From NCBI GenBank assembly GCA_032718475.1, contig JAUCBJ010006506.1, forward strand, positions 52,953-116,952: a stretch of 64,000 nucleotides of DNA. The letters are read 5' to 3'. The notes beneath the pieces were generated by a model that saw nothing but the letters and a program-made list of their open reading frames with translations, searched no databases and was not told the DNA's origin. The translations under genes and the position numbers were made by a program. Source of the stretch: Nemertoderma westbladi (Eukaryota; Animalia; Xenacoelomorpha). Position 1 is the first letter of the stretch; every line of letters starts with the position of its first letter. Shown here piece after piece: positions 1-55,018 of this stretch.

Positions 1-3000
1 TACCAATGGATAGAGAGAGGTCAAACAATAGTTCGTATTAACATAAAAAATAAATAGGTACCAATGGATAGAGAGATCAAAAAATAAATAGGTACCAATG
101 GATAGAGAGAGGTCAAACAATAGTTCGTATTAACATAAAAAATAAATAGGTACCAATGGATAGAGAGAGGTCAAACAATAGTTCGTATTAACATAAAAAA
201 TAAATAGGTACCAATGGATAGAGAGATCAAAAATTAAATAGGTACCAATGGATAGAGAGAGGTCAAACAATAGTTCGTATTAACATAAAAAATAAATAGG
301 TACCAATGGATAGAGAGAGGTCAAACAATAGTTCGCATTAACCTAAAAATTAAATAGGTACCAATGGATAGAGAGATCAAACAATAGTTCGTATTAACAT
401 AAAAAATAAATAGGTACCAATGGATAGAGAGAGGTCAAACAATAGTTCGCATTAACATAAAAAATAAATAGGTACCAATGGATAGAGAGAGGTCAAACAA
501 TAGTTCGCATTAACCTAAAAATTAAATAGGTACCAATGGATAGAGAGATCAAACAATAGTTCGTATTAACATAAAAAATAAATAGGTACCAATGGATAGA
601 GAGAGGTCAAACAATAGTTCGTATTAACATAAAAAATAAATAGGTACCAATGGATAGAGAGAGGTCAAACAATAGTTCGCATTAACCTAAAAAATAAATA
701 GGTACCAATGGATAGAGAGAGGTCAAAAAATAGTTCGTATTAACATAAAAAATAAATAGGTACCAATGAATAGAGAGAGGTCAAACAATAGTTCGCATTA
801 ACATAAAAAATAAATAGGTACCAATGGATAGAGAGAGGTCAAACAATAGTTCGTATTAACATAAAAAATAAATAGGTACCAATGGATAGAGAGAGGTCAA
901 ACAATAGTTCGCATTAACCTAAAAAATAAATAGGTACCAATGGATAGAGAGAGGTCAAACAATAGTTCGCATTAACCTAAAAAATAAATAGGTACCAATG
1001 GATAGAGAGAGGTCAAACAATAGTTCGCATTAACCTAAAAATTAAATAGGTACCAATGGATAGAGAGATCAAACAATAGTTCGTATTAACATAAAAAATA
1101 AATAGGTACCAATGGATAGAGAGATCAAACAATAGTTCGTATTAACATAAAAAATAAATAGGTACCAATGGATAGAGAGATCAAACAATAAATAGGTACC
1201 AATGGATAGAGAGATCAAACAATAGTTCGTATTAACATAAAAAATAAATAGGTACCAATGGATAGAGAGAGGTCAAACAATAGTTCGCATTAACCTAAAA
1301 AATAAATAGGTACCAATGGATAGAGAGAGGTCAAACAATAGTTCGCATTAACCTAAAAAATAAATAGGTACCAATGGATAGAGAGAGGTCAAACAATAGT
1401 TCGCATTAACCTAAAAATTAAATAGGTACCAATGGATAGAGAGATCAAACAATAGTTCGTATTAACATAAAAAATAAATAGGTACCAATGGATAGAGAGA
1501 TCAAACAATAGTTCGTATTAACATAAAAAATAAATAGGTACCAATGGATACAGGAGGTAAAACAATAGTTCGTATTAACATAAAAAATAAATAGGTACCA
1601 ATGGATAGAGAGGTCAAACAATAGTTCGCATTAACCTAAAAAATAAATAGGTACCAATGGATAGAGAGGTCAAACAATAGTTCGCATTAACCTAAAAAAT
1701 AAATAGGTACCAATGGATAGAGAGGTCAAACAATAGTTCGTATTAACATAAAAAATAAATAGGTACCAATGGATAGAGAGAGGTCAAACAATAGTTCGTA
1801 TTAACATAAAAAATAAATAGGTACCAATGGATGGAGAGAGGTCAAACAATAGTTCGTATTAACCTAAAAAATAAATAGGTACCAATGGATAGAGAGAGGT
1901 CAAACAATAGTTCGCATTAACATAAAAAATAAATAGGTACCAATGGATAGAGAGAGGTCAAACAATAGTTCGCATTAACATAAAAAATAAATAGGTACCA
2001 ATGGATAGAGAGAGGTCAAACAATAGTTCGTATTAACATAAAAAATAAATAGGTAACAATGGATAGAGAGAGGTTAAACAATAGTTCGCATTAACATAAA
2101 AAATAAATAGGTACCAATGGATAGAGAGATCAAAAAATAAATAGGTACCAATGGATAGAGAGAGATCAAACAATAGTTCGCATTAACATAAAAAATAAAT
2201 AGGTACCAATGGATAGAGAGATCAAACAATAGTTCGCGTTAACATAAAAAATAAATAGTTACCAATGGATAGAGAGATCAAACAATAAATAGGTACCAAT
2301 GGATAGAGAGGTCAAACAATAGTTCGCATTAACCTAAAAAATAAATAGGTACCAATGGATAGAGAGATCAAACAATAAATAGGTACCAATGGATAGAGAG
2401 AGGTCAAACAATAGTTCGCATTAACATAAAAAATAAATAGGTACCAATGGATAGAGAGAGGTCAAACAATAGTTCGTATTAACATAAAAAATAAATAGGT
2501 ACCAATGGATAGAGAGATCAAACAATAAATAGGTACCAATGGATAGAGAGAGGTCAAACAATAGTTCGCATTAACATAAAAAATAAATAGGTACCAATGG
2601 ATAGAGAGATCAAACAATAAATAGGTACCAATGGATAGAGAGATCAAACAATAAATAGGTACCAATGGATAGAGAGAGGTCAAACAATAGTTCGCATTAA
2701 CATAAAAAATAAATAGGTACCAATGGATAGAGAGATCAAACAATAAATAGGTACCAATGGATAGAGAGATCAAACAATAAATAGGTACCAATGGATAGAG
2801 AGGTCAAACAATAGTTCGCATTAACCTAAAAAATAAATAGGTACCAATGGATAGAGAGATCAAACAATAAATAGGTACCAATGGATAGAGAGGTCAAACA
2901 ATAGTTCGCATTAACCTAAAAAATAAATAGGTACCAATGGATAGAGAGGTCAAACAATAGTTCGCATTAACCTAAAAAATAAATAGGTACCAATGGATAG

Positions 3001-6000
3001 AGAGGTCAAACAATAGTTCGTATTAACATAAAAAATAAATAGGTACCAATGGATAGAGAGATCAAACAATAAATAGGTACCAATGGATAGAGAGGTCAAA
3101 CAATAGTTCGCATTAACCTAAAAAATAAATAGGTACCAATGGATAGAGAGATCAAACAATAAATAGGTACCAATGGATAGAGAGAGGTCAAACAATAGTT
3201 CGCATTAACATAAAAAATAAATAGGTACCAATGGATAGAGAGATCAAAAAATAAATAGGTACCAATGGATAGAGAGGTCAAACAATAGTTCGCATTAACA
3301 TAAAAAATAAATAGGTACCAATGGATAGAGAGAGGTCAAACAATAGTTCGTATTAACATAAAAAATAAATAGGTACCAATTGATAGAGAGAGGTCAAACA
3401 ATAGTTCGTATTAACATAAAAAATAAATAGGTACCAATGGATAGAGAGAGGTCAAACAATAGTTCGTATTAACATAAAAAATAAATAGGTACCAATGGAT
3501 AGAGAGAGGTCAAACAATAGTTCGCATTAACATAAAAAATAAATAGGTACCAATGGATAGAGAGATCAAAAAATAAATAGGTACCAATGGATAGAGAGGT
3601 CAAACAATAGTTCGCATTAACATAAAAAATAAATAGGTACCAATGGATAGAGAGAGGTCAAACAATAGTTCGCATTAACATAAAAAATAAATAGGTACCA
3701 ATGGATAGAGAGATCAAAAAATAAATAGGTACCAATGGATAGAGAGAGGTCAAACAATAGTTCGCATTAACATAAAAAATAAATAGGTACCAATTGATAG
3801 AGAGAGGTCAAACAATAGTTCGTATTAACATAAAAAATAAATAGGTACCAATTGATAGAGAGAGGTCAAACAATAGTTCGTATTAACATAAAAAATAAAT
3901 AGGTACCAATGGATAGAGAGAGGTCAAACAATAGTTCGCATTAACATAAAAAATAAATAGGTACCAATGGATTGAGAGATCAAAAAATAAATAGGTACCA
4001 ATGGATAGAGAGGTCAAACAATAGTTCGCATTAACATAAAAAATAAATAGGTACCAATGGATAGAGAGAGGTCAAACAATAGTTCGCATTAACATAAAAA
4101 ATAAATAGGTACCAATGGATAGAGAGATCAAAAAATAAATAGGTACCAATGGATAGAGAGAGGTCAAACAATAGTTCGCATTAACATAAAAAATAAATAG
4201 GTACCAATTGATAGAGAGAGGTCAAACAATAGTTCGCATTAACCTAAAAAATAAATAGGTACCAATGGATAGAGAGAGGTCAAACAATAGTTCGCATTAA
4301 CATAAAAAATAAATAGGTACCAATGGATAGAGAGATCAAAAAATAAATAGGTACCAATGGATAGAGAGATCAAAAAATAAATAGGTACCAATGGATAGAG
4401 AGAGGTCAAACAATAGTTCGAATTAACATAAAAAATAAATAGGTACCAATGGATAGAGAGAGGTCAAACAATAGTTCGCATTAACATAAAAAATAAATAG
4501 GTACCAATGGATAGAGAGAGGTCAAACAATAGTTCGCATTAACATAAAAAATAAATAGGTACCAATGGAAAGAGAGAGATCAAACAATAGTTCGAATTAA
4601 CATAAAAAATAAATAGGTACCAATGGATAGAGAGAGGTCAAACAATAGTTCGCATTAACATAAAAAATAAATAGGTACCAATGGATAGAGAGAGATCAAA
4701 CAATAGTTCGAATTAACATAAAAAATAAATAGGTACCAATGGATAGAGAGAGGTCAAACAATAGTTCGCATTAACATAAAAAATAAATAGGTACCAATGG
4801 ATAGAGAGAGGTCAAACAATAGTTCGTATTAACATAAAAAATAAATAGGTACCAATGGATAGAGAGATCAAAAAATAAATAGGTACCAATGGATAGAGAG
4901 GTCAAACAATAGTTCGAATTAACATAAAAAATAAATAGGTACCAATGGATAGAGAGATCAAACAATAAATAGGTACCAATGGATAGAGAGGTCAAACAAT
5001 AGTTCGCATTAACCTAAAAAATAAATAGGTACCAATGGATAGAGAGATCAAACAATAAATAGGTACCAATGGATAGAGAGAGGTCAAACAATAGTTCGCA
5101 TTAACATAAAAAATAAATAGGTACCAATGGATAGAGAGATCAAAAAATAAATAGGTACCAATGGATAGAGAGGTCAAACAATAGTTCGCATTAACATAAA
5201 AAATAAATAGGTACCAATGGATAGAGAGAGGTCAAACAATAGTTCGTATTAACATAAAAAATAAATAGGTACCAATTGATAGAGAGAGGTCAAACAATAG
5301 TTCGTATTAACATAAAAAATAAATAGGTACCAATGGATAGAGAGAGGTCAAACAATAGTTCGTATTAACATAAAAAATAAATAGGTACCAATGGATAGAG
5401 AGAGGTCAAACAATAGTTCGCATTAACATAAAAAATAAATAGGTACCAATGGATAGAGAGATCAAAAAATAAATAGGTACCAATGGATAGAGAGGTCAAA
5501 CAATAGTTCGCATTAACATAAAAAATAAATAGGTACCAATGGATAGAGAGAGGTCAAACAATAGTTCGCATTAACATAAAAAATAAATAGGTACCAATGG
5601 ATAGAGAGATCAAAAAATAAATAGGTACCAATGGATAGAGAGAGGTCAAACAATAGTTCGCATTAACATAAAAAATAAATAGGTACCAATTGATAGAGAG
5701 AGGTCAAACAATAGTTCGTATTAACATAAAAAATAAATAGGTACCAATTGATAGAGAGAGGTCAAACAATAGTTCGTATTAACATAAAAAATAAATAGGT
5801 ACCAATGGATAGAGAGAGGTCAAACAATAGTTCGCATTAACATAAAAAATAAATAGGTACCAATGGATTGAGAGATCAAAAAATAAATAGGTACCAATGG
5901 ATAGAGAGGTCAAACAATAGTTCGCATTAACATAAAAAATAAATAGGTACCAATGGATAGAGAGAGGTCAAACAATAGTTCGCATTAACATAAAAAATAA

Positions 6001-9000
6001 ATAGGTACCAATGGATAGAGAGATCAAAAAATAAATAGGTACCAATGGATAGAGAGAGGTCAAACAATAGTTCGCATTAACATAAAAAATAAATAGGTAC
6101 CAATTGATAGAGAGAGGTCAAACAATAGTTCGCATTAACCTAAAAAATAAATAGGTACCAATGGATAGAGAGAGGTCAAACAATAGTTCGCATTAACATA
6201 AAAAATAAATAGGTACCAATGGATAGAGAGATCAAAAAATAAATAGGTACCAATGGATAGAGAGATCAAAAAATAAATAGGTACCAATGGATAGAGAGAG
6301 GTCAAACAATAGTTCGAATTAACATAAAAAATAAATAGGTACCAATGGATAGAGAGAGGTCAAACAATAGTTCGCATTAACATAAAAAATAAATAGGTAC
6401 CAATGGATAGAGAGAGGTCAAACAATAGTTCGCATTAACATAAAAAATAAATAGGTACCAATGGAAAGAGAGAGATCAAACAATAGTTCGAATTAACATA
6501 AAAAATAAATAGGTACCAATGGATAGAGAGAGGTCAAACAATAGTTCGCATTAACATAAAAAATAAATAGGTACCAATGGATAGAGAGAGATCAAACAAT
6601 AGTTCGAATTAACATAAAAAATAAATAGGTACCAATGGATAGAGAGAGGTCAAACAATAGTTCGCATTAACATAAAAAATAAATAGGTACCAATGGATAG
6701 AGAGAGGTCAAACAATAGTTCGTATTAACATAAAAAATAAATAGGTACCAATGGATAGAGAGATCAAAAAATAAATAGGTACCAATGGATAGAGAGGTCA
6801 AACAATAGTTCGAATTAACATAAAAAATAAATAGGTACCAATGGATAGAGAGAGGTCAAACAATAGTTCGCATTAACATAAAAAATAAATAGGTACCAAT
6901 GGATAGAGAGAGGTCAAACAATAGTTCGTATTAACATAAAAAATAAATAGGTACCAATGGATAGAGAGAGGTCAAACAATAGTTCGTATTAACATAAAAA
7001 ATAAATAGGTACCAATGGATAGAGAGGTCAAACAATAGTTCGAATTAACATAAAAAATAAATAGGTACCAATGGATAGAGAGAGGTCAAACAATAGTTCG
7101 TATTAACATAAAAAATAAATAGGTACCAATGGATAGAGAGAGGTCAAACAATAGTTCGTATTAACATAAAAAATAAATAGGTACCAATGGATAGAGAGAT
7201 CAAACAATAGTTCGCATTAACATAAAAAATAAATAGGTACCAATGGATAGAGAGATCAAACAATAGTTCGTATTAACATAAAAAATAAATAGGTACCAAT
7301 GGATAGAGAGAGGTCAAACAATAAATAGGTACCAATGGATAGAGAGGTCAAACAATAGTTCGTATTAACATAAAAAATAAATAGGTACCAATGGATAGAG
7401 AGATCAAACAATAGTTCGCATTAACATAAAAAATAAATAGGTACCAATGGATAGAGAGAGGTCAAACAATAGTTCGAATTAACATAAAAAATAAATAGGT
7501 ACCAATGGATAGAGAGATCAAAAAATAAATAGGTACCAATGGATAGAGAGATCAAAAAATAAATAGGTACCAATGGATAGAGAGAGGTCAAACAATAGTT
7601 CGCATTAACATAAAAAATAAATAGGTACCAATGGATAGAGAGAGGTCAAACAATAGTTCGTATTAACATAAAAAATAAATAGGTACCAATGGATAGAGAG
7701 AGGTCAAACAATAGTTCGTATTAACATAAAAAATAAATAGGTACCAATGGATAGAGAGAGGTCAAACAATAGTTCGTATTAACATAAAAAATAAATAGGT
7801 ACCAATGGATAGAGAGATCAAACAATAGTTCGCATTAACATAAAAAATAAATAGGTACCAATGGATAGAGAGATCAAACAATAGTTCGTATTAACATAAA
7901 AAATAAATAGGTACCAATGGATAGAGAGAGGTCAAACAATAAATAGGTACCAATGGATAGAGAGAGGTCAAACAATAGTTCGTATTAACCTAAAAAATAA
8001 ATAGGTACCAATGGATAGAGAGATCAAACAATAGTTCGTATTAACATAAAAAATAAATAGGTACCAATGGATAGAGAGAGGTCAAACAATAAATAGGTAC
8101 CAATGGATAGAGAGATCAAACAATAGTTCGTATTAACATAAAAAATAAATAGGTACCAATGGATAGAGAGAGGTCAAACAATAAATAGGTACCAATGGAT
8201 AGAGAGAGGTCAAACAATAGTTCGTATTAACATAAAAAATAAATAGGTACCAATGGATAGAGAGATCAAACAATAGTTCGCATTAACATAAAAAATAAAT
8301 AGGTACCAATGGATAGAGAGATCAAACAATAGTTCGTATTAACATAAAAAATAAATAGGTACCAATGGATAGAGAGAGGTCAAACAATAAATAGGTACCA
8401 ATAGATAGAGAGGTCAAACAATAGTTCGAATTAACATAAAAAATAAATAGGTACCAATGGATAGAGAGATCAAAAAATAAATAGGTACCAATGGATAGAG
8501 AGATCAAAAAATAAATAGGTACCAATGGATAGAGAGATCAAACAATAGTTCGTATTAACATAAAAAATAAATAGGTACCAATGGATAGAGAGAGGTCAAA
8601 CAATAGTTCGTATTAACATAAAAAATAAATAGGTACCAATGGATAGAGAGAGGTCAAACAATAGTTCGTATTAACATAAAAAATAAATAGGTACCAATGG
8701 ATAGAGAGAGGTCAAACAATAGTTCGTATTAACATAAAAAATAAATAGGTACCAATGGATAGAGAGAGGTCAAACAATAGTTCGTATTAACATAAAAAAT
8801 AAATAGGTACCAATGGATAGAGAGAGGTCAAACAATAGTTCGTATTAACATAAAAAATAAATAGGTACCAATGGATAGAGAGAGGTCAAACAATAGTTCG
8901 TATTAACATAAAAAATAAATAGGTACCAATGGATAGAGAGAGGTCAAACAATAGTTCGTATTAACATAAAAAATAAATAGGTACCAATGGATAGAGAGAG

Positions 9001-12000
9001 GTCAAACAATAGTTCGAATTAACATAAAAAATAAATAGGTACCAATGGATAGAGAGAGGTCAAACAATAGTTCGTATTAACATAAAAAATAAATAGGTAC
9101 CAATGGATAGAGAGAGGTCAAACAATAGTTCGCATTAACATAAAAAATAAATAGGTACCAATGGATAGAGAGAGGTCAAACAATAGTTCGTATTAACATA
9201 AAAAATAAATAGGTACCAATGGATAGAGAGAGGTCAAACAATAGTTCGTATTAACATAAAAAATAAATAGGTACCAATGGATAGAGAGAGGTCAAACAAT
9301 AGTTCGAATTAACATAAAAAATAAATAGGTACCAATGGATAGAGAGAGGTCAAACAATAGTTCGAATTAACATAAAAAATAAATAGGTACCAATGGATAG
9401 AGAGATCAAAAAATAAATAGGTACCAATGGATAGAGAGATCAAAAAATAAATAGGTACCAATGGATAGAGAGGTCAAACAATAGTTCGTATTAACATAAA
9501 AAATAAATAGGTACCAATGGATAGAGAGAGGTCAAACAATAGTTCGAATTAACATAAAAAATAAATAGGTACCAATGGATAGAGAGATCAAAAAATAAAT
9601 AGGTACCAATGGATAGAGAGATCAAAAAATAAATAGGTACCAATGGATAGAGAGAGGTCAAACAATAGTTCGAATTAACATAAAAAATAAATAGGTACCA
9701 ATGGATAGAGAGAGGTCAAACAATAGTTCGTATTAACATAAAAAATAAATAGGTACCAATGGATAGAGAGAGGTCAAACAATAGTTCGTATTAACATAAA
9801 AAATAAATAGGTACCAATGGATAGAGAGATCAAACAATAGTTCGTATTAACATAAAAAATAAATAGGTACCAATGGATAGAGAGAGGTCAAACAATAGTT
9901 CGTATTAACATAAAAAATAAATAGGTACCAATGGATAGAGAGATCAAACAATAGTTCGTATTAACATAAAAAATAAATAGGTACCAATGGATAGAGAGAG
10001 GTCAAACAATAGTTCGTATTAACATAAAAAATAAATAGGTACCAATGGATAGAGAGATCAAAAAATAAATAGGTACCAATGGATAGAGAGATCAAACAAT
10101 AGTTCGCATTAACATAAAAAATAAATAGGTACCAATGGATAGAGAGAGGTCAAACAATAGTTCGTATTAACATAAAAAAAAAATAGGTACCAATGGATAG
10201 AGAGATCAAACAATAGTTCGTATTAACATAAAAAATAAATAGGTACCAATGGATAGAGAGAGGTCAAACAATAGTTCGTATTAACATAAAAAATAAATAG
10301 GTACCAATGGATAGAGAGGTCAAACAATAGTTCGCATTAACATAAAAAATAAATAGGTACCAATGGATAGAGAGGTCAAACAATAGTTCGCATTAACATA
10401 AAAAATAAATAGGTACCAATGGATAGAGAGATCAAACAATAGTTCGTATTAACATAAAAAATAAATAGGTACCAATGGATAGAGAGAGGTCAAACAATAG
10501 TTCGTATTAACATAAAAAATAAATAGGTACCAATGGATAGAGAGAGGTCAAACAATAGTTCGTATTAACATAAAAAATAAATAGGTACCAATGGATAGAG
10601 AGAGATCAAACAATAGTTCGCATTAACATAAAAAATAAATAGGTACCAATGGATAGAGAGATCAAAAAATAAATAGGTACCAATGGATAGAGAGAGGTCA
10701 AACAATAGTTCGCATTAACATAAAAAATAAATAGGTACCAATGGATAGAGAGATCAAACAATAAATAGGTACCAATGGATAGAGAGAGGTCAAACAATAG
10801 TTCGCATTAACATAAAAAATAAATAGGTACCAATGGATAGAGAGATCAAAAAATAAATAGGTACCAATGGATAGAGAGATCAAAAAATAAATAGGTACCA
10901 ATGGATAGAGAGGGGTCAAACAATAGTTCGTATTAACATAAAAAATAAATAGGTACCAATGGATAGAGAGATCAAACAATAGTTCGAATTAACATAAAAA
11001 ATAAATAGGTACCAATGGATAGAGAGGTCAAACAATAGTTCGCATTAACATAAAAAATAAATAGGTACCAATGGATAGAGAGATCAAACAATAGTTCGAA
11101 TTAACATAAAAAATAAATAGGTACCAATGGATAGAGAGAGGTCAAACAATAGTTCGCATTAACATAAAAAATAAATAGGTACCAATGGATAGAGAGATCA
11201 AAAAATAAATAGGTACCAATGGATAGAGAGATCAAACAATAGTTCGAATTAACATAAAAAATAAATAGGTACCAATGGATAGAGAGAGGTCAAACAATAG
11301 TTCGCATTAACATAAAAAATAAATAGGTACCAATGGATAGAGAGATCAAACAATAGTTCGCATTAACATAAAAAATAAATAGGTACCAATGGATAGAGAG
11401 AGGTCAAACAATAGTTCGTATTAACATAAAAAATAAATAGGTACCAATGGATAGAGAGATCAAACAATAGTTCGCATTAACATAAAAAATAAATAGGTAC
11501 CAATGGATAGAGAGATCAAACAATAGTTCGCATTAACATAAAAAATAAATAGGTACCAATGGATAGAGAGATCAAACAATAGTTCGCATTAACATAAAAA
11601 ATAAATAGGTACCAATGGATAGAGAGAGGTCAAACAATAGTTCGTATTAACATAAAAAATAAATAGGTACCAATGGATAGAGAGGTCAAACAATAGTTCG
11701 CATTAACATAAAAAATAAATAGGTACCAATGGATAGAGAGATCAAACAATAGTTCGCATTAACATAAAAAATAAATAGGTACCAATGGATAGAGAGAGGT
11801 CAAACAATAGTTCGCATTAACATAAAAAATAAATAGGTACCAATGGATAGAGAGATCAAAAAATAAATAGGTACCAATGGATAGAGAGAGGTCAAACAAT
11901 AGTTCGTATTAACATAAAAAATAAATAGGTACCAATGGATAGAGAGAGGTCAAACAATAGTTCGTATTAACATAAAAAATAAATAGGTACCAATGGATAG

Positions 12001-34167: not shown

Positions 34168-34253
34168 TTAAATAGATACTAAACTGTGTAAAAAACAAAC
34201 AAACAAATATTTGAATAGCCTAAACAAAGATAGTCAATTAAGACTATACTTAC
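1..34253 (-). other. Intron 3 (phase 2) of the SLC1 gene, partial, >34 kb
   Basis: Donor AA|GTAAGT at 34253 on the minus strand. Only 34168-34253 is non-repetitive. The acceptor is not in the window. Confidence 0.85.
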
Positions 34254-34426
34254 TTGAGAACAACAAGGTTGAACTGGGTCACCATTTGTATAAACACTTG
34301 ACAATCTTTTTGAACACTACCAGCTGTAACTCCAACAGCTATACTGAATACCATACAACCGAGTAGATTCATATTGGAGGTGGTCCTCTGAACATATCCG
34401 GTAAACTCCCAGTCAGAGTCATTCAT
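34254..34426 (-). CDS. SLC1/EAAT-family transporter, coding exon 3 (173 nt; absent from the ORF track)
   Basis: Manual translation: ttctgcag|MNDSDWEFTGYVQRTTSNMNLLGCMVFSIAVGVTAGSVQKDCQVFIQMVTQFNLVVL+AA|gtaagt. This resembles the EAAT 'MNVLGLIVFSIVFG...FF..LNE..M' region and joins exon 2 in phase 0. Confidence 0.9.
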
Positions 34427-34513
34427 CTGCAGAATAAATCCTTAAGTTTAAAAAAAAAGGTTAATTATTGAATAAAGAAAGTCGCACTCACACAAGATTG
34501 CTAAGATAGAGAG

Positions 34514-37500: not shown

Positions 37501-37646
37501 TATATTGAAGGAACGTTCAGAATTATCGAATTTAATGTGAAGGAACGTTCCGTTCTAACCTGTTTATATTGAAGAAACGTTCCAGGCTAACCTGTTTATA
37601 TTGAAGGAACGTTCCAGGCTAACCTGTTTATATTGAAGGAACGTTC
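34514..37646. repeat. Intronic satellite B, 32-bp monomer, about 95-100 copies, overlapping the exon-2 donor
   Basis: Two monomer types: GAAGGAACGTTCAGAACTATCTAATTTATATT and GAAGGAACGTTCCGTGCTAACCTGTTTATATT. The terminal copy overlaps the last 23 nt of exon 2. Confidence 0.98.
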
Positions 37647-37947
37647 TGGTGCTGCCGGTCATGGCACCGATTATATTATCTGGGCACAGGTTGTAGAGAA
37701 GATCAAAGAAGCTATGGACACTAGTCCCTTCTCGCTCGGCAGGGTCCTCTTCAATTTTTACGCCGGATATGGGCAGAGTAACGCCGGGGTTTATTGCTAA
37801 AGCGATCCCGAGTCCACTAGATACCGCGAGCACCGTGGTACCTATGTAGAAGAGGATAACCCTGAGACCAATGGATCCGGTCACACTGGGGTCTAGATTG
37901 GCGACACCGGAAACAAGGCTGCCCATCACAAATGGGAGAATCACCAG
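37624..37947 (-). CDS. SLC1/EAAT-family transporter, coding exon 2 (324 nt)
   Basis: ttacag|LVILPFVMGSLVSGVANLD...GLRVILFYIGTTVLAVSSGLGIALAINPG...SFFDLLYNLCPDNIIGA...FLQYKQ|gttagc. Matches the EAAT motifs 'LVLPLIISSLVTG', 'YYxxTT', 'IHPG' and 'FLDLIRNxFPxNL'. 108 codons, phase 0 at both ends. Confidence 0.95.
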
Positions 37948-40900
37948 CTGTAACGAAGTAAGAACCAATGATTGGGAAAGGTCACCAGCAGTAAAGGAAG
38001 CAAGTAAGATGCAATGATAGGGAAAGGTCAACAGCTGTAAGTAAGTGAGTAAGATACAATGATAGGGAAAGGTCAACTCAACAGCTGTAAGGAAGCAAGT
38101 AAGATGCAATGATAGGGAAAGGTCAACAGCTGTAAGTAAGTGAGTAGGATACAATGATAGGGAAAGGTCAACTCAACAGCTGTAAATAAGTAAGTAAGAT
38201 GCAATGATAGGGAAAGGTCACCAGCTGTAAGGAAGCAAGCAAAATACAATGGTAGGGAAAGGTCACCAGCTGTAAGGAAGCAAGTAAGATACAATGATAG
38301 GGAAAGGTCACCAGCTGTAAGGAAGTAAGTAAGATACAATGATAGGGAAAGGTCAACTCAACAGCTGTAAGGAAGCAAGTAAGATGCAATGATAGGGAAA
38401 GGTCAACAGCTGTAAGTAAGTGAGTAGGATACAATGATAGGGAAAGGTCAACTCAACAGCTGTAAATAAGTAAGTAAGATGCAATGATAGGGAAAGGTCA
38501 CCAGCTGTAAGGAAGCAAGCAAAATACAATGGTAGGGAAAGGTCACCAGCTGTAAGGAAGCAAGTAAGATACAATGATAGGGAAAGGTCACCAGCTGTAA
38601 GGAAGTAAGTAAGATACAATGATAGGGAAAGGTCACCAGCAGTAAAGGAAGCAAGTAAAATACAATGATAGGGAAAGGTCACCAGCAGTAAAGGAAGCAA
38701 GTAAAATACAATGATAGGGAAAGGTCACCAGCAGTAAAGGAAGCAAGTAAAATACAATGATAGGGAAAGGTCACCAGCAGTAAAGGAAGCAAGTAAAATA
38801 CAATGATAGGGAAAGGTCACCAGCAGTAAAGGAAGCAAGTAAAATACAATGATAGGGAAAGGTCACCAGCAGTAAAGGAAGCAAGTAAAATACAATGATA
38901 AGGAAAGGTCACCAGCTGTAAGGAAGTAAGTAAAATACAATGATAAGGAAAGGTCAACAGCTGTAAGGAAATAAGTAAGAACCAATGATTGGGAAAGGTC
39001 AACAGCTGTAAGGAAGTAAGTAAGATACAATGATAGGGAAAGGTCACCAGTTGTAAGGAAGCAAGTAAAATACAATGATAAGGAAAGGTCACCAGCTGTT
39101 AGGAAGTAAGTAAAATACAATGATGAGGAAAGGTCAACAGCTGTAAGGAAATAAGTAAGAACCAATGATTGGGAAAGGTCAACAGCTGTAAGGAAGTAAG
39201 TAAGATACAATGATAGGGAAAGGTCACCAGCAGTAAAGGAAGCAAGTAAAATACAATGATAGGGAGAGGTCACCAGCAGTAAAGGAAGCAAGTAAAATAC
39301 AATGATAGGGAAAGGTCACCAGCAGTAAAGGAAGCAAGTAAAATACAATGATAGGGAAAGGTCACCAGCAGTAAAGGAAGCAAGTAAAATACAATGATAA
39401 GGAAAGGTCACCAGCTGTAAGGAAGTAAGTAAAATACAATGATGAGGAAAGGTCAACAGCTGTAAGGAAATAAGTAAGAACCAATGATTGGGAAAGGTCA
39501 ACAGCTGTAAGGAAGTAAGTAAGATACAATGATAGGGAAAGGTCACCAGTTGTAAGGAAGCAAGTAAGATACAATGATAGGGAAAGGTCACCAGTTGTAA
39601 GGAAGTAAGTAAAATACAATGATGAGGAAAGGTCAACAGCTGTAAGGAAATAAGTAAGAACCAATGATTGGGAAAGGTCAACAGCTGTAAGGAAATAAGT
39701 AAGAACCAATGATTGGGAAAGGTCAACAGCTGTAAGGAAGTAAGTAAGATACAATGATAAGGAAAGGTCACCAGCTGTAAGGAAGTAAGTAAAATACAAT
39801 GATGAGGAAAGGTCAACAGCTGTAAGGAAATAAGTAAGAACCAATGATTGGGAAAGGTCAACAGCTGTAAGGAAGTAAGTAAGAACCAATGATTGGGAAA
39901 GGTCAACAGCTGTAAGGAAGTAAGTAAGATACAATGATAGGGAAAGGTCACCAGTTGTAAGGGAGCAAGTAAAATACAATGATAAGGAAAGGTCAACAGC
40001 TGTAAGGAAGTAAGTAAAATACAATGATAGGGAAAGGTCACCAGCAGTAAAGGAAGCAAGTAAAATACAATGATAGGGAAAGGTCACCAGCAGTAAAGGA
40101 AGCAAGTAAAATACAATGATAGGGAAAGGTCACCAGCAGTAAGGAAATAAGTAAGAACCAATGATTGGGAAAGGTCAACAGCTGTAAGGAAGTAAGTAAG
40201 ATACAATAATAGGGAAAGGTCACCAGCTGTAAGGAAGTAAGTAAGATACAATGATAGGGAAAGGTCACCAGCTGTAAGGAAGTAAGTAAGATACAATGAT
40301 AGGGAAAGGTCACCAGTTGTAAAGGAAGCAAGTAAAATACAATGATAGGGAAAGGTCACCAGCTGTAAGGAAGTAAGTAAAATACAATGATAGGGAAAGG
40401 TCACCAGCAGTAAGGAAGTAAGTAAAATACAATGATAGGGAAAGGTCAACAGCTGTAAGGAAGTAAGTAAAATACAATGATAAGGAAAGGTCAACAGCTG
40501 TAAGGAAGTAAGTAAGATACAATGATAGGGAAAGGTCACCAGCAGTAAAGGAAGCAAGTAAAATACAATGATAAGGAAAGGTCACCAGCAGTAAGGAAGT
40601 AAGTAAGATACAATGATGAGGAAAGGTCAACAGCTGTAAGGAAATAAGTAAGAACCAATGATTGGGAAAGGTCAACAGCTGTAAGGAAGTAAGTAAGATA
40701 CAATGATAGGGAAAGGTCACCAGTTGTAAGGAAGCAAGTAAAATACAATGATGAGGAAAGGTCACCAGCAGTAAGGAAATAAGTAAGAACCAATGATTGG
40801 GAAAGGTCAACAGCTGTAAGGAAGTAAGTAAGATACAATGATAGGGAAAGGTCACCAGCTGTAAGGAAGTAAGTAAGATACAATGATGAGGAAAGGTCAA

Positions 40901-43900
40901 CAGCTGTAAGGAAATAAGTAAGAACCAATGATTGGGAAAGGTCAACAGCTGTAAGGAAGTAAGTAAGATACAATGATAGGGAAAGGTCACCAGCTGTAAG
41001 GAAGTAAGTAAGATACAATGATGAGGAAAGGTCAACAGCTGTAAGGAAATAAGTAAGAACCAATGATTGGGAAAGGTCAACAGCTGTAAGGAAGTAAGTA
41101 AGATACAATGATAGGGAAAGGTCACCAGCAGTAAAGGAAGCAAGTAAAATACAATGATAGGGAAAGGTCACCAGCAGTAAAGGAAGCAAGTAAAATACAA
41201 TGATAGGGAAAGGTCACCAGCAGTAAGGAAATAATTAAGAACCAATGATTGGGAAAGGTCAACAGCTGTAAGGAAGTAAGTAAGATACAATGATAGGGAA
41301 AGGTCACCAGTTGTAAAGGAAGCAAGTAAAATACAATGACAGGGAAAGGTCACCAGCAGTAAAGGAAGCAAGTAAAATACAATGATAGGGAAAGGTCACC
41401 AGCAGTAAAGGAAGCAAGTAAAATACAATGATAGGGAAAGGTCACCAGCAGTAAAGGAAGCAAGTAAAATACAATGATAGGGAAAGGTCACCAGCAGTAA
41501 AGGAAGCAAGTAAAATACAATGATAGGGAAAGGTCACCAGCAGTAAAGGAAGCAAGTAAAATACAATGATAGGGAAAGGTCACCAGCAGTAAAGGAAGCA
41601 AGTAAAATACAATGACAGGGAAAGGTCACCAGCAGTAAGGAAGTAAGTAAAATACAATGATAGGGAAAGGTCACCAGCTGTAAGGAAGTAAGTAAGATAC
41701 AATGATAGGGAAAGGTCACCAGCAGTAAAGGAAGCAAGTAAAATACAATGACAGGGAAAGGTCACCAGCAGTAAAGGAAGCAAGTAAAATACAATGATAG
41801 GGAAAGGTCACCAGCAGTAAAGGAAGCAAGTAAAATACAATGATAGGGAAAGGTCACCAGCAGTAAAGGAAGCAAGTAAAATACAATGATAAGGAAAGGT
41901 CACCAGCTGTAAGGAAGTAAGTAAGATACAATGATAGGGAAAGGTCACCAGCTGTAAGGAAGTAAGTAAGATACAATGATAGGGAAAGGTCACCAGCAGT
42001 AAAGGAAGCAAGTAAAATACAATGATAGGGAAAGGTCACCAGCAGTAAAGGAAGCAAGTAAAATACAATGATAGGGAAAGGTCACCAGCAGTAAGGAAGT
42101 AAGTAAAATACAATGATAGGGAAAGGTCACCAGCAGTAAAGGAAGCAAGTAAAATACAATGATAGGGAAAGGTCACCAGCTGTAAGGAAGTAAGTAAAAT
42201 ACAATGATAGGGAAAGGTCACCAGCAGTAAAGGAAGCAAGTAAAATACAATGATAGGGAAAGGTCACCAGCTGTAAGGAAGTAAGTAAAATACAATGATA
42301 GGGAAAGGTCACCAGCAGTAAGGAAGTAAGTAAAATACAATGATAGGGAAAGGTCACCAGCTGTAAGGAAGTAAGTAAGATACAATGATAGGGAAAGGTC
42401 ACCAGCAGTAAAGGAAGCAAGTAAAATACAATGATAGGGAAAGGTCACCAGCAGTAAAGGAAGCAAGTAAAATACAATGATAGGGAAAGGTCACCAGCTG
42501 TAAGGAAGTAAGTAAGATACAATGATAGGGAAAGGTCACCAGCAGTAAAGGAAGCAAGTAAAATACAATGATAGGGAAAGGTCACCAGCTGTAAGGAAGT
42601 AAGTAAGATACAATGATAGGGAAAGGTCACCAGCAGTAAAGGAAGCAAGTAAAATACAATGATAGGGAAAGGTCACCAGCAGTAAAGGAAGCAAGTAAAA
42701 TACAATGATAGGGAAAGGTCACCAGCTGTAAGGAAGTAAGTAAGATACAATGATAGGGAAAGGTCACCAGCTGTAAGGAAGTAAGTAAAATACAATGATA
42801 GGGAAAGGTCACCAGCTGTAAGGAAGTAAGTAAAATACAATGATAGGGAAAGGTCACCAGCAGTAAAGGAAGCAAGTAAAATACAATGATAGGGAAAGGT
42901 CACCAGCAGTAAGGAAGTAAGTAAAATACAATGATAGGGAAAGGTCACCAGCAGTAAAGGAAGCAAGTAAAATACAATGATAGGGAAAGGTCACCAGCAG
43001 TAAAGGAAGCAAGTAAAATACAATGATAGGGAAAGGTCACCAGCTGTAAGGAAGTAAGTAAGATACAATGATAGGGAAAGGTCACCAGCAGTAAAGGAAG
43101 CAAGTAAAATACAATGACAGGGAAAGGTCACCAGCAGTAAAGGAAGCAAGTAAAATACAATGAGGGGGAAAGGTCACCAGCTGTAAGGAAGCAAGTAAAA
43201 TACAATGATAGGGAAAGGTCACCAGCAGTAAGGAAGTAAGTAAAATACAATGATAGGGAAAGGTCACCAGCAGTAAGGAAGTAAGTAAAATACAATGATA
43301 GGGAAAGGTCACCAGCTGTAAGGAAGTAAGTAAAATACAATGATAGGGAAAGGTCACCAGCAGTAAGGAAGTAAGTAAAATACAATGATAGGGAAAGGTC
43401 ACCAGCTGTAAGGAAGTAAGTAAGATACAATGATAGGGAAAGGTCACCAGCTGTAAGGAAGTAAGTAAAATACAATGATAGGGAAAGGTCACCAGCTGTA
43501 AGGAAGTAAGTAAAATACAATGATAGGGAAAGGTCACCAGCAGTAAAGGAAGCAAGTAAAATACAATGACAGGGAAAGGTCACCAGCAGTAAAAGAAGCA
43601 AGTAAAATACAATGATAGGGAAAGGTCACCAGCAGTAAGGAAGTAAGTAAAATACAATGATAGGGAAAGGTCACCAGCAGTAAAGGAAGCAAGTAAAATA
43701 CAATGACAGGGAAAGGTCACCAGCAGTAAAGGAAGCAAGTAAAATACAATGACAGGGAAAGGTCACCAGCAGTAAAGGAAGCAAGTAAAATACAATGATA
43801 GGGAAAGGTCACCAGCAGTAAGGAAGTAAGTAAAATACAATGATAGGGAAAGGTCACCGGCAGTAAGGAAGTAAGTAAAATACAATGATAGGGAAAGGTC

Positions 43901-46900
43901 ACCAGCAGTAAGGAAGTAAGTAAAATACAATGATAGGGAAAGGTCACCAGCTGTAAGGAAGTAAGTAAGATACAATGATAGGGAAAGGTCACCAGCTGTA
44001 AGGAAGTAAGTAAAATACAATGATAGGGAAAGGTCACCAGCTGTAAGGAAGTAAGTAAAATACAATGATAGGGAAAGGTCACCAGCAGTAAAGGAAGCAA
44101 GTAAAATACAATGATAGGGAAAGGTCACCAGCAGTAAGGAAGTAAGTAAAATACAATGATAGGGAAAGGTCACCAGCAGTAAGGAAGTAAGTAAAATACA
44201 ATGATAGGGAAAGGTCACCAGCTGTAAGGAAGTAAGTAAGATACAATGATAGGGAAAGGTCAACAGCTGTAAATAAGTAAGTAAAATACAATGATAGGGA
44301 AAGGTCACCAGCTGTAAGGAAGTAAGTAAAATACAATGATAGGGAAAGGTCACCAGCAGTAAGGAAGTAAGTAAAATACAATGATAGGGAAAGGTCACCA
44401 GCTGTAAGGAAGTAAGTAAGATACAATGATAGGGAAAGGTCACCAGCAGTAAAGGAAGCAAGTAAAATACAATGATAGGGAAAGGTCACCAGCAGTAAAG
44501 GAAGCAAGTAAAATACAATGATAGGGAAAGGTCACCAGCTGTAAGGAAGTAAGTATGATACAATGATAGGGAAAGGTCACCAGCAGTAAAGGAAGCAAGT
44601 AAAATACAATGACAGGGAAAGGTCACCAGCAGTAAAGGAAGCAAGTAAAATACAATGATAGGGAAAGGTCACCAGCAGTAAAGGAAGCAAGTAAAATACA
44701 ATGACAGGGAAAGGTCACCAGCAGTAAAGGAAGCAAGTAAGATACAATGATAGGGAAAGGTCACCAGCTGTAAGGAAGTAAGTAAGATACAATGATAGGG
44801 AAAGGTCACCAGCAGTAAAGGAAGCAAGTAAAATACAATGACAGGGAAAGGTCACCAGCAGTAAAGGAAGCAAGTAAAATACAATGACAGGGAAAGGTCA
44901 CCAGCAGTAAAGGAAGCAAGTAAAATACAATGATAGGGAAAGGTCACCAGCAGTAAAGGAAGCAAGTAAAATACAATGATAGGGAAAGGTCACCAGCAGT
45001 AAAGGAAGCAAGTAAAATACAATGATAGGGAAAGGTCACCAGCTGTAAGGAAGCAAGTAAAATACAATGATAGGGAAAGGTCACCAGCTGTAAGGAAATA
45101 AGTAAGAACCAATGATTGGGAAAGGTCAACAGCTGTAAGGAAGTAAGTAAGATACAATGATAGGGAAAGGTCACCAGCAGTAAAGGAAGCAAGTAAAATA
45201 CAATGATAGGGAAAGGTCACCAGCTGTAAGGAAGTAAGTAAGATACAATGATAGGGAAAGGTCACCAGCAGTAAAGGAAGCAAGTAAAATACAATGACAG
45301 GGAAAGGTCACCAGCAGTAAAGGAAGCAAGTAAAATACAATGATAGGGAAAGGTCACCAGCAGTAAAGGAAGCAAGTAAAATACAATGATAGGGAAAGGT
45401 CACCAGCTGTAAGGAAGTAAGTAAAATACAATGATAGGGAAAGGTCACCAGCAGTAAAGGAAGCAAGTAAAATACAATGATAGGGAAAGGTCACCAGCAG
45501 TAAAGGAAGCAAGTAAAATACAATGATAGGGAAAGGTCACCAGCTGTAAGGAAGTAAGTAAGATACAATGATAGGGAAAGGTCACCAGTTGTAAGGAAGC
45601 AAGTAAAATACAATGATAAGGAAAGGTCACCAGCTGTAAGGAAGTAAGTAAAATACAATGATAGGGAAAGGCCACCAGCAGTAAAGGAAGCAAGTAAAAT
45701 ACAATGATAGGGAAAGGTCACCAGCAGTAAAGGAAGCAAGTAAAATACAATGATAGGGAAAGGTCACCAGCTGTAAGGAAGTAAGTAAGATACAATGATA
45801 GGGAAAGGTCACCAGCAGTAAAGGAAGCAAGTAAAATACAATGATAAGGAAAGGTCACCAGCAGTAAAGGAAGCAAGTAAAATACAATGATAGGGAAAGG
45901 TCACCAGCAGTAAAGGAAGCAAGTAAAATACAATGATAGGGAAAGGTCACCAGCTGTAAGGAAGTAAGTAAGATACAATGATAGGGAAAGGTCACCAGCA
46001 GTAAAGGAAGCAAGTAAAATACAATGATAAGGAAAGGTCACCAGCAGTAAAGGAAGCAAGTAAAATACAATGATAAGGAAAGGTCACCAGCAGTAAAGGA
46101 AGCAAGTAAAATACAATGATAGGGAAAGGTCACCAGCTGTAAGGAAGTAAGTAAGATACAATGATAGGGAAAGGTCACCAGCAGTAAAGGAAGCAAGTAA
46201 AATACAATGATAGGGAAAGGTCACCAGCAGTAAAGGAAGCAAGTAAAATACAATGATAGGGAAAGGTAAACAGCTGTAAGGAAGTAAGTAAAATACAATG
46301 ATAGGGAAAGGTCACCAGCAGTAAAGGAAGCAAGTAAAATACAATGATAGGGAAAGGTCACCAGCTGTAAGGAAGTAAGTAAGATACAATGATAGGGAAA
46401 GGTCACCAGCTGTAAGGAAGTAAGTAAGATACAATGATAGGGAAAGGTCACCAGCTGTAAGGAAGCAAGTAAAATACAATGATAAGGAAAGGTCACCAGC
46501 AGTAAAGGAAGCAAGTAAAATACAATGATAGGGAAAGGTCACCAGCTGTAAGGAAGTAAGTAAGATACAATGATAGGGAAAGGTCACCAGCAGTAAAGGA
46601 AGCAAGTAAAATACAATGATAGGGAAAGGTCACCAGCAGTAAAGGAAGCAAGTAAAATACAATGATAGGGAAAGGTCACCAGCTGTAAGGAAGTAAGTAA
46701 GATACAATGATAGGGAAAGGTCACCAGCAGTAAAGGAAGCAAGTAAAATACAATGATAGGGAAAGGTCACCAGCTGTAAGGAAGCAAGTAAAATACAATG
46801 ATAGGGAAAGGTCACCAGCAGTAAGGAAGTAAGTAAAATACAATGATAGGGAAAGGTCACCAGCTGTAAGGAAGTAAGTAAGATACAATGATAGGGAAAG

Positions 46901-49900
46901 GTCACCAGCAGTAAAGGAAGCAAGTAAAATACAATGATAGGGAAAGGTCACCAGCAGTAAGGAAGTAAGTAAAATACAATGATAGGGAAAGGTCACCAGC
47001 AGTAAGGAAGTAAGTAAGATACAATGATAGGGAAAGGTCACCTGCTGTAAGGAAGTAAGTAAGATACAATGATGAGGAAAGGTCAACAGCTGTAAGGAAA
47101 TAAGTAAGAACCAATGATTGGGAAAGGTCAACAGCTGTAAGGAAGTAAGTAAGATACAATGAGGGAAAGGTCACCAGCTGTAAGGAAGTAAGTAAAATAC
47201 AATGATAAGGAAAGGTCACCAGCAGTAAAGGAAGCAAGTAAAATACAATGATAGGGAGAGGTCAACAGCTGTAAGGAAATAAGTAAGAACCAATGATTGG
47301 GAAAGGTCAACAGCTGTAAGGAAGTAAGTAAGATACAATGATAGGGAAAGGTCACCAGTTGTAAAGGAAGCAAGTAAAATACAATGATAAGGAAAGGTCA
47401 ACAGCTGTAAGGAAATAAGTAAGAACCAATGATTGGGAAAGGTCAACAGCTGTAAGGAAGTAAGTAAGATACAATGATAGGGAAAGGTCACCAGTTGTAA
47501 AGGAAGCAAGTAAAATACAATGACAGGGAAAGGTCACCAGCAGTAAAGGAAGTAAGTAAGATACAATGAGGGAAAGGTCACCAGCTGTAAGGAAGTAAGT
47601 AAGATACAATGATGAGGAAAGGTCAACAGCTGTAAGGAAATAAGTAAGATACAATGAGGGAAAGGTCACCAGCTGTAAGGAAGTAAGTAAAATACAATGA
47701 TGAGGAAAGGTCAACAGCTGTAAGGAAATAAGTAAGAACCAATGATTGGGAAAGGTCAACAGCTGTAAGGAAGTAAGTAAGATACAATGAGGGAAAGGTC
47801 ACCAGCTGTAAGGAAGTAAGTAAAATACAATGATGAGGAAAGGTCAACAGCTGTAAGGAAATAAGTAAGAACCAATGATTGGGAAAGGTCAACAGCTGTA
47901 AGGAAGTAAGTAAGATACAATGACAGGGAAAGGTCACCAGCAGTAAAGGAAGCAAGTAAAATACAATGACAGGGAAAGGTCACCAGCAGTAAAGGAAGCA
48001 AGTAAAATACAATGATAGGGAAAGGTCACCAGCAGTAAGGAAGTAAGTAAAATACAATGATAGGGAAAGGTCACCAGCTGTAAGGAAGTAAGTAAGATAC
48101 AATGATAGGGAAAGGTCACCAGCTGTAAGGAAGTAAGTAAAATACAATGATAGGGAAAGGTCACCAGCAGTAAAGGAAGCAAGTAAAATACAATGATAGG
48201 GAAAGGTCACCAGCAGTAAAGGAAGCAAGTAAAATACAATGATAGGGAAAGGTCACCAGCAGTAAAGGAAGCAAGTAAGATACAATGAGGGAAAGGTCAC
48301 CAGCTGTAAGGAAGTAAGTAAGATACAATGATAGGGAAAGGTCACCAGCTGTAAGGAAGTAAGTAAGATACAATGATGAGGAAAGGTCAACAGCTGTAAG
48401 GAAATAAGTAAGAACCAATGATTGGGAAAGGTCAACAGCTGTAAGGAAGTAAGTAAGATACAATGATAGGGAAAGGTCACCAGTTGTAAGGAAGCAAGTA
48501 AAATACAATGATGAGGAAAGGTCAACAGCTGTAAGGAAATAAGTAAGAACCAATGATTGGGAAAGGTCAACAGCTGTAAGGAAGTAAGTAAGATACAAGG
48601 ATACGGAAAGGTCACCAGTTGTAAGGAAGTAAGTAAGATACAATGAGGGAAAGGTCACCAGCAGTAAAGGAAGCAAGTAAAATACAATGATAGGGAAAGG
48701 TCACCAGCAGTAAAGGAAGCAAGTAAAATACAATGATAAGGAAAGGTCACCAGTTGTAAGGAAGTAAGTAAAATACAATGATAAGGAAAGGTCACCAGCA
48801 GTAAAGGAAGCAAGTAAGATACAATGAGGGAAAGGTCACCAGCTGTAAGGAAGTAAGTAAGATGCAATGATAGGGAAAGGTCACCAGCTGTAAGGAAGCA
48901 AGAAAAATACAATGATAAGGAAAGGTCACCAGCAGTAAGGAAGTAAGTAAGATACAATGATAGGGAAAGGTCACCAGCAGTAAAGGAAGCAAGTAAGATG
49001 CAATGATAGGGAAAGGTCACCAGCTGTAAGGAAGCAAGAAAAATACAATGATAAGGAAAGGTCAACAGCTGTAAGGAAGTAAGTAAGATACAAGGATAGG
49101 GAAAGGTCACCAGCAGTAAAGGAAGCAAGTAAGATGCAATGATAGGGAAAGGTCACCAGCTGTAAGGAAGCAAGAAAAATACAATGATAAGGAAAGGTCA
49201 ACAGCTGTAAGGAAGTAAGTAAGATACAAGGATAGGGAAAGGTCACCAGCAGTAAAGGAAGCAAGTAAGATGCAATGATAGGGAAAGGTCACCAGCTGTA
49301 AGGAAGCAAGAAAAATACAATGATAAGGAAAGGTCAACAGCTGTAAGGAAGTAAGTAAGATACAATGATAGGGAAAGGTCACCAGCTGTAAGGAAGTAAG
49401 TAAAATACAATGATGAGGAAAGGTCAACAGCTGTAAGGAAATAAGTAAGAACCAATGATTGGGAAAGGTCTACAGCTGTAAGGAAATAAGTAAGAACCAA
49501 TGATTGGGAAAGGTCAACAGCTGTAAGGAAATAAGTAAGAACCAATGATTGGGAAAGGTCAACAGCTGTAAGGAAGTAAGTAAGATACAATGATAGGGAA
49601 AGGTCAACAGCTGTAAGGAAATAAGTAAGAACCAATGATTGGGAAAGGTCAACAGCTGTAAGGAAGTAAGTAAAATACAATGATTGGGAAAGGTCACCAG
49701 CTGTAAGGAAGTAAGTAAGATACAAGGATAGGGAATGGTCACCAGCTGTAAGGAAGTAAGTAAGATACAAGGATAAGGAAAGGTCACCAGCTGTAAGGAA
49801 GTAAGTAAAATACAATGATAGGGAAAGGTCACCAGCAGTAAAGGAAGCAAGTAAAATACAATGATAGGGAAAGGTCACCAGCAGTAAAGGAAGCAAGTAA

Positions 49901-51081
49901 GATACAATGAGGGAAAGGTCACCAGCTGTAAGGAAGTAAGTAAGATACAATGAGGGAAAGGTCACCAGCTGTAAGGAAGTAAGTAAGATACAAGGATAGG
50001 GAAAGGTCACCAGCAGTAAAGGAAGCAAGTAAGATGCAATGATAGGGAAAGGTCACCAGCTGTAAGGAAGTAAGTAAGATACAATGATAGGGAAAGGTCA
50101 CCAGCTGTAAGGAAGTAAGTAAAATACAATGATGAGGAAAGGTCAACAGCTGTAAGGAAGTAAGTAAAATACAATGATAGGGAAAGGTCACCAGCTGTAA
50201 GGAAGTAAGTAAAATACAATGATAGGGAAAGGTCACCAGCAGTAAGGAAGTAAGAAAAATACAATGATAAGGAAAGGTCAACAGCTGTAAGGAAGTAAGT
50301 AAGATACAATGATAGGGAAAGGTCACCAGCTGTAAGGAAGTAAGTAAAATACAATGATAGGGAAAGGTCACCAGCTGTAAGGAAGTAAGTAAAATACAAT
50401 GATGAGGAAAGGTCAACAGCTGTAAGGAAGTAAGTAAAATACAATGATAGGGAAAGGTCACCAGCTGTAAGGAAGCAAGAAAAATACAATGATAAGGAAA
50501 GGTCAACAGCTGTAAGGAAGTAAGTAAGATACAATGATAGGGAAAGGTCACCAGCTGTAAGGAAGTAAGTAAAATACAATGATAGGGAAAGGTCACCAGC
50601 TGTAAGGAAGTAAGTAAAATACAATGATGAGGAAAGGTCAACAGCTGTAAGGAAGTAAGTAAAATACAATGATAGGGAAAGGTCACCAGCTGTAAGGAAG
50701 CAAGAAAAATACAATGATAAGGAAAGGTCAACAGCTGTAAGGAAGTAAGTAAGATACAATGATAGGGAAAGGTCACCAGCTGTAAGGAAGTAAGTAAAAT
50801 ACAATGATAGGGAAAGGTCACCAGCTGTAAGGAAGTAAGTAAAATACAATGATGAGGAAAGGTCAACAGCTGTAAGGAAGTAAGTAAAATACAATGATAG
50901 GGAAAGGTCACCAGCTGTAAGGAAGTAAGTAAAATACAATGATGAGGAAAGGTCAACAGCTGTAAGGAAGTAAGTAAGAACCAATGATTGGGAAAGGTCA
51001 ACAGCTGTAAGGAAGTAAGTAAGATACAATGATAGGGAAAGGTCACCAGTTGTAAGGAAGCAAGTAAGATACAATGATAGG
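37941..51081. repeat. Intronic satellite C, 45/46-bp monomer, about 290 copies, overlapping the exon-2 acceptor
   Basis: Consensus + strand GGAAAGGTCACCAGCTGTAAGGAAGTAAGTAAGATACAATGATAG (45 bp) and a 46-bp variant with CAGCAGTAAAGGAAGC. One degenerate copy follows at about 51095-51137. Confidence 0.99.
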
Positions 51082-51285
51082 CATATTTATCGCCCTGTAA
51101 GTAAGGTGAAGTACAATGTATGTGAAGGGTCATCAGCCCACCCCATTTATTAGACAAGACCGGTCATATGGCAACGACAATAAGTTGTTGTGATTAGTAA
51201 TTAGTGACTATTTATCGCCTATATTGGCTTTTATGGTATTATATTATCATTTACACTACTGCCTGACAAATAGTAAAATTCTCAC

Positions 51286-51513
51286 CTGAAGTAGTCTAAG
51301 TATAAGAACGCCAGGTAAGGCGATGACATAAATAGTTGAAATAGAAAGGTTGAAGGGTCGCAAAATGAGTCCAATCACAGTACCAATTACGCAAAACAAA
51401 AGAATTAGTATGACTAGTAGATTAGAACGCAATAATCGCCGTAAACAACTCTTAGTACATCTCCCTCCACAGAATCTCGGTTCTGAGACCGCCAAAACCG
51501 CTTCCTTCTCCAT
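51286..51513 (-). CDS. SLC1/EAAT-family transporter, first coding exon (228 nt)
   Basis: ATG at 51513. MEKEAV...SNLLVILILLFCVIGTVIGLILRPFNLS...IALPGVLILRLLQ|gtgag resembles EAAT TM1 and 'FPGELLMRMLQ'. It joins exon 2 as RLLQ|LVILP. Confidence 0.93.
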
Positions 51514-54965: not shown

Positions 54966-55018
54966 CTGGCTGACTAGGCCTAAACGTTTCTCCCATTTAA
55001 AATTGATATTTGTCACAG

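Follow-up and report, generated by a model that had tools for sequence, protein, structure and literature searches.

Tandem repeats that cross exon-intron boundaries have been described in amphioxus, where they are known as "mirages" and occur in Adh3, in the globin genes BflGb6 and BflGb9, in PGBD5 and in troponin C, with normal mRNA reported (PMC3087553, PMC3902484). Junction-spanning variable number tandem repeats (VNTRs) are also known from five human genes (PMC1557585): F7 IVS7 (intervening sequence 7; 37 bp, 5-9 copies), 6-16 intron 2 (25 pseudo-sites), CBS IVS13 (15-20), LMNB2 (100 bp, 10-15) and PDGFA intron 4 (81 bp, 16-18). Together the human cases span 5-26 copies, and in F7 use of the most upstream donor by 5′-3′ scanning was demonstrated experimentally (PMC1557585). 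Repeat-filled introns of another kind are found in the Drosophila Y fertility genes kl-3 and kl-5, whose megabase introns consist of simple satellite such as (AATAT)n (PMC6508621), and in the Rogers tandem-duplication model, as cited in PMC3087553, a new intron is born from the duplicate of an exonic AG/GT. Here we analyze a window of 64,000 nt from Nemertoderma westbladi (GenBank assembly GCA_032718475.1, contig JAUCBJ010006506.1, positions 52,953 to 116,952 of the forward strand), in which a minus-strand gene with three exons, likely an SLC1/EAAT-like transporter (glutamate/neutral amino-acid) by its protein matches, contains three introns made almost entirely of tandem arrays. We consider it probable that these arrays (satellites C, B and A, in transcript order) are three mirage-type minisatellites, in which junction-spanning units expanded, the exon-adjacent site is likely the one used, and the repeats are tolerated by-products. 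Overlap with the neighboring splice junction is evident for introns 1 and 2 and likely for intron 3.

Joined exons 1-3 give 241 open codons, with GT-AG introns and matching phases of 0, 0 and 2. Exon 1, the first visible coding exon (51286..51513, minus strand, as are all features of the gene given below), would comprise 76 codons from a putative ATG, and its phase-0 end adjoins a GT donor. Exon 2 (37624..37947) measures 324 nt with phase 0/0, and exon 3 (34254..34426) 173 nt with phase 0/2. The junctions 51286/37947 and 37624/34426, proposed in a preliminary description of this stretch, are canonical GT-AG and in frame, and the exon 3 end at 34254 is in phase 2. The family assignment derives from exons 2 and 3; exon 1 gives only a weak Pfam match. 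Exon 2 scores above the cut-off of 27.9 bits against Pfam SDF (PF00375; E 1.7e-15, 57.4 bits) and matches an EAAT3 chain with E 1.1e-16; exon 3 gives a weak, below cut-off match to the segment of the SDF profile that follows (E 0.011) and E 0.07-0.7 against EAAT1/ASCT2 chains, and was also aligned with homologues. A HMMER search of a protein library recovered 716 relatives, the closest 41% identical, a search of the ESM Atlas returned SDF clusters only, and word-indexed protein searches with exon 2 gave no matches. Exon 3 reaches roughly position 170 in the SDF profile, which has 387; the gene continues past base 1, and the transport domain lies outside the window, which itself contains no N. 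The earlier statement that all three introns of the gene are filled with copies of their own junctions therefore applies only to the three introns in view, as part of the gene lies beyond the window.

Intron 1 (37948..51285) is 13,338 nt long and 98.5% array. Tandem Repeats Finder (TRF) places satellite C at 37941..51081 with a period of 45 nt and 289 units of 45/46 nt, each composed of ~32 nt of acceptor, the first 7 nt of exon 2, which the array overlaps as originally reported, and 6 nt that loosely resemble the next exon bases. The C monomer had been equated with the exon 2 acceptor; the overlap bears this out, but the acceptor of exon 2 itself lies in a 41-nt end variant that has diverged from the C unit. 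At the junction the 289 units carry AG in 155 cases, TG in 120 and AA in 14, and intact units are more frequent toward the ends of the array (51, 33, 25 and 45 per segment of 72). The unit adjoining the true exon 2 acceptor is splice-dead, leaving 85 AG-free nt within the 87 nt to the nearest intact decoy (37948..38034). Use of a decoy acceptor would shift the frame or bring a stop in 153 of 154 cases, and the sole exception is this nearest acceptor, which would add an in-frame, stop-free insert of 29 codons. An old, degenerate copy of C lies at 51095..51135, within the supposedly unique part of the intron (0/500 shuffles score as well). A GGCGATAA-like motif forms short GC-rich degenerate repeats at 55020-55134 and is also present in unique intron 1 near 51087-51095 and 51212-51220.

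Intron 2 (34427..37623; 3,197 nt, 97.3% array) carries its repeat at the opposite, donor side. Satellite B (34514..37646 by TRF; period 32 nt, 98 full units) begins with a unit that consists of the last 23 nt of exon 2 and 9 nt of intron, confirming what had been noted. The GT donor is kept in 27 of the 98 full units, the true donor included. A donor-less type accounts for 67 units and differs at 7-8 positions, all of them among 12 positions around or after the junction. The first two decoy donors are intact, and use of any of the 26 decoys would shift the frame or bring a stop.

Satellite A (1..34167 by TRF; period 58 nt) fills intron 3 (1..34253), which is at least 34,253 nt long and 99.7% array, with its 3′ end and exon 4 outside the window; the array stays in register up to base 1. 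Its 642 units, mostly 56/58 nt long, combine a pyrimidine (T-rich) tract, AG, and 21 nt that would represent the start of exon 4. AG is kept in 86 units and is AT in 437, while 119 short 34/36-mers are without the junction; the monomer with AG and ATG quoted in the preliminary description is a minority form with 71 matches. Among full-length units, two of the first 44 positions vary by more than 2%, and one of these is the G of AG (83.5% T). Intact units are again more numerous at the ends (40, 23, 2 and 21 per segment of 160), and on the transcript strand one run of 136 consecutive splice-dead units (8067..15329; 7,263 nt) is devoid of AG. The ~200, 90 and 86 nt previously given as unique sequence in introns 1-3 correspond to 204, 87 and 86 nt outside the arrays, although these figures include the old C copy and a weakly A-like stretch: most of the start of intron 3 (34169-34238) resembles a decayed A unit (22/500 shuffles as good), and intron 3 may be repeat-derived nearly up to its own donor. 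The start of the array coincides with 8 nt shared by intron 3 and the exon-like segment of the A unit.

In the phase set by exon 3, the 21 nt of satellite A read L-M/I-R-T-I-V followed by TG. For comparison, 65 of 150 listed relatives (280-700 aa) were aligned, 11 that were gapped at the exon 3 end were dropped, and 54 were scored. These homologues have hydrophobic residues at the matching columns, and 31 of the 54 carry tryptophan (W) in the eighth. Among the 58 offsets of the transcript strand the A reading scored highest, and one opposite-strand offset slightly exceeded it. Of 100,000 shuffled A units, 166 equalled this score with a peptide preceded by AG and followed by TG in the W column; 2,762 did so when TG was not required. 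Protein homology thus favors the proposal that A spans a junction, and satellite A is likely the acceptor junction of exon 4. If A were instead an ordinary intronic minisatellite unrelated to that junction, only two junction-spanning arrays would remain. The position of exon 4 beyond the window, the low peptide score and the absence of AG from 87% of units fit such a view, but a fitting phase, a residue pattern like that of the homologues and TG in the conserved W column speak against it, and we consider it very improbable.

The exon-like 21 nt of A (e.g. 33872-33892, minus strand) stop precisely with the TG that falls in the conserved W column, at which several homologue models also break: P0040, P0060 and P0130 skip ahead to a motif further on, P0023 derails, and P0035 ends. 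Vertebrate SLC1 genes presumably have an intron at this W-column codon. It is possible that exon 4 is a 21-nt micro-exon, that intron 3 is shifted or newer, or that the correspondence is a coincidence arising through the 8-nt homology.

We propose that in each short intron a 32-58-nt stretch across a splice junction would have been duplicated head-to-tail, by slippage or unequal crossing-over at short homologies, after which unequal exchange would have expanded the repeats into arrays of 3, 13 and at least 34 kb, in a region that may be prone to minisatellites. Exact block duplications of up to 1,936 nt would record such exchange, although some could be assembly duplicates. Growth of short introns by junction-spanning units, to 13.3, 3.2 and at least 34.3 kb, had been suggested in the preliminary description and agrees with an array content of 97-99.7%. 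Introns 1 and 2 each keep a unique opposite end and hence appear older than their arrays. Exon definition and the removal of frameshifted products are established features of gene expression. Splicing would probably be kept correct by first-donor scanning together with exon definition, such that the exon-adjacent sites are used, and mis-spliced products would be removed, because nearly every decoy in introns 1 and 2 brings a stop or shifts the frame. We see the arrays most likely as by-products that the gene tolerates, not as a splicing device. The concentration of intact, ancestral-type units at array ends agrees with the edge effect reported for mirages (PMC3087553).

The match of units B and C to their own junctions, and probably that of A, is not due to chance. 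Whether overlap with junctions exceeds chance is a separate matter, and was addressed with a geometric null in which duplications of 45, 32 and 58 nt were placed at random in original introns of ~236, 96 and 123 nt. All three arrays straddle a junction with p 0.097, or 0.045 if only splice-viable placements are counted; after removal of the old degenerate C copy the values are 0.123 and 0.058. The window was picked post hoc. Two further arrays upstream of the gene, at 52875-54965 (TRF, 63 nt, ~33 units) and 55855-57099 (TRF, 28 nt, 44.5 units), both have no identified junction, and near the second no exon was identified either. With p values of ~0.05-0.12, a post hoc window and two arrays of this kind, the notion of a systematic process is not sustained, and the caveat originally attached to it, that duplications in very short introns often overlap a junction by chance, is the better explanation. 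Junction overlap would then be mostly geometry, as the units amount to a fifth to a half of the original 100-240-nt introns. The unusual feature is the ease with which arrays are born and grow in this region; their placement needs no special mechanism.

Other origins were considered and rejected. A common origin was rejected because a comparison of arrays A, B, C, D and E gave a match solely between the two types of B, and none of the arrays matches the rest of the window at E <0.3. Construction of the exons from satellites was discarded, as the start of exon 2 is conserved coding sequence; the exon bodies show no similarity to the units (227-450 of 500 shuffles as good). A Rogers-type birth of introns 1 and 2 was set aside since their opposite ends are unique.

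The commonest unit in each of the three arrays has lost AG or GT. What remains as decoys are 154 acceptors (intron 1), 26 donors (intron 2) and, in the visible part of intron 3, 86 copies of AG, so that the picture of a spliceosome picking one site among hundreds of near copies was overstated. Several points weigh against the origin that we propose. Pure drift fits the dominance of splice-dead units in all three arrays only awkwardly: by a rough, post hoc estimate that assumes uniform mutation, the three commonest units would all be dead with a chance of ~0.002-0.006, or of 0.07-0.08 if A is left out. The score of the A peptide is low (3.0 or 6.9 bits versus an in-sample homologue median of 14.5), and exon 4 is outside the window. 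The junctions are modelled from the sequence, use of the first donor is easier to explain than use of the last among 155 AGs, and the next pseudo-donors see some use in 6-16 and CBS (PMC1557585).

Loss of AG/GT may reflect selection against decoys, or drift. In a variant of the proposal that keeps the same origin, selection acts as a filter: growth over many kb would follow only after a unit lacking AG/GT had arisen and taken over, and splicing fidelity would gate array size. Consistent with this, the commonest unit is dead throughout, the G of AG is one of the two variable positions in A, junction deletion provides a second route to splice-dead units (119 A units), a 7.3-kb stretch of A is AG-free, a dead unit with its 85 AG-free nt adjoins the true exon 2 acceptor, and the dead fraction is greatest in the longest array. 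In CBS, a substitution in the second repeat reportedly prevents alternate splicing. However, 154 intact C acceptors persist, the first two B decoy donors are intact, and intact units lie at array ends, where purging should be strongest; turnover explains this distribution without selection. Moreover, the comparison comprises three arrays only, with non-independent units, an inferred ancestral state for A and a post hoc test. We regard a selective filter as conceivable but doubtful. Somewhat more doubtful still is the general claim that mirages can scale to satellite-sized arrays, occupying >97% of an intron, with growth to 10-34+ kb gated by splicing fidelity and proceeding by way of an AG/GT-less unit. 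If true, junction duplication would constitute a distinct route to giant introns, and the arrays would record selection against decoy splice sites.

Alternatively, the gene could be a decaying or silent SLC1 copy, in which arrays are free of splicing constraint, or the array lengths could be inflated by assembly. Three big expansions in a single gene, closest library proteins only ~41% identical and an array that extends off the window might be expected in such a case. Exact block duplicates of 1,936 and 1,433 nt inside A (3022-6853; 28249-32269) could be products of recent unequal exchange or of assembly duplication; internal block duplications in a single haplotype point to past turnover of the array. 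Against this stand the 241 open codons over three exons, with canonical sites and matching phases, the ordered arrangement of numerous different unit variants (58 in A), and a window without N. We judge this explanation unlikely.

A role of the intact copies as recursive-splicing (ratchet) points for stepwise removal of long introns would be suggested by AG directly followed by GT in all 86 intact A and 27 intact B units, and by AG, three bases and GT in 88 C units. But the motif is already explained by CAG at the end of exon 2 and GT at the start of the putative exon 4, a 7.3-kb stretch of A is without such a site, and regenerated donors would be weak. Such a function seems to us the least plausible of the readings considered.

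Open reading frames (ORFs) also occur elsewhere in the window. Across the 63-nt array at 52875-54965, a plus-strand frame is stop-free for 688 codons (52911-54977) despite unit variation, and 45-nt units keep the frame; its Pfam matches were dismissed as repeat artefacts (0 significant stretches). A single ORF of 568 codons at 58617-60323 (plus strand) appears coiled-coil-like by eye, and a Pfam search assigned it to no family. At 63106-64000 (minus strand) an unbroken, GC-rich (62%) ORF with a katanin con80 domain (E 7.2e-35) extends off the window; a word-indexed protein search with this ORF gave no matches.

Set against known systems, the arrays most closely resemble amphioxus mirages. They consist of head-to-tail units of 32, 45 and 58 nt, B and C span their host boundary, part of the units keep AG/GT, and edge units differ from the interior. 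Likewise, amphioxus units cross the boundary on the donor or acceptor side (10-72 bp in Adh3), "Many, but not all" carry AG/GT, PGBD5 has more than one array, and edge units escape homogenization. The differences are in copy number, which is 2-7 in the text passages on amphioxus versus 98, 289 and at least 642 here, in the dominance of splice-dead units at this locus, and in splicing, which was checked to be normal in amphioxus and is modelled here. As in satellite B, the first unit of the human VNTRs covers the exon end and donor, but these form one donor-side array of <2 kb per gene, while here there are three in one gene, two of them acceptor-side. Drosophila Y introns share a tandem repeat content of >97-99%; they are megabase-sized, however, and their simple satellites are not described, in the passages available, as junction-derived, whereas introns 1 and 2 measure 13 and 3 kb and the locus-born units of 32-58 nt form arrays of 3-34+ kb. 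In the Rogers model, too, duplications cover splice signals, but the far ends of introns 1 and 2 are unique sequence.

The accessible part of a human catalogue of splicing-associated repeats (PMC10078293) held nothing closer, and literature searches for very large junction-spanning arrays or genome-wide tests, in a collection with few subscription papers, listed no array this large. With 154 near-identical decoy acceptors spread across the 13 kb that precede the real one, the gene offers an acceptor-side counterpart of the F7 donor model, and its arrays are large enough to gauge whether splice dinucleotides disappear faster than other positions. If such an excess held genome-wide, splicing selection would shape satellite evolution; otherwise, the locus would be an extreme but ordinary mirage cluster. 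The preliminary description knew of no account of this as a systematic process, yet mirages had been named (PMC3087553, PMC3902484) and five human genes reported (PMC1557585). The repeat type is known, and what is new is its scale, 98-642 copies versus 2-26 in the papers cited, together with the dominance of splice-dead units.

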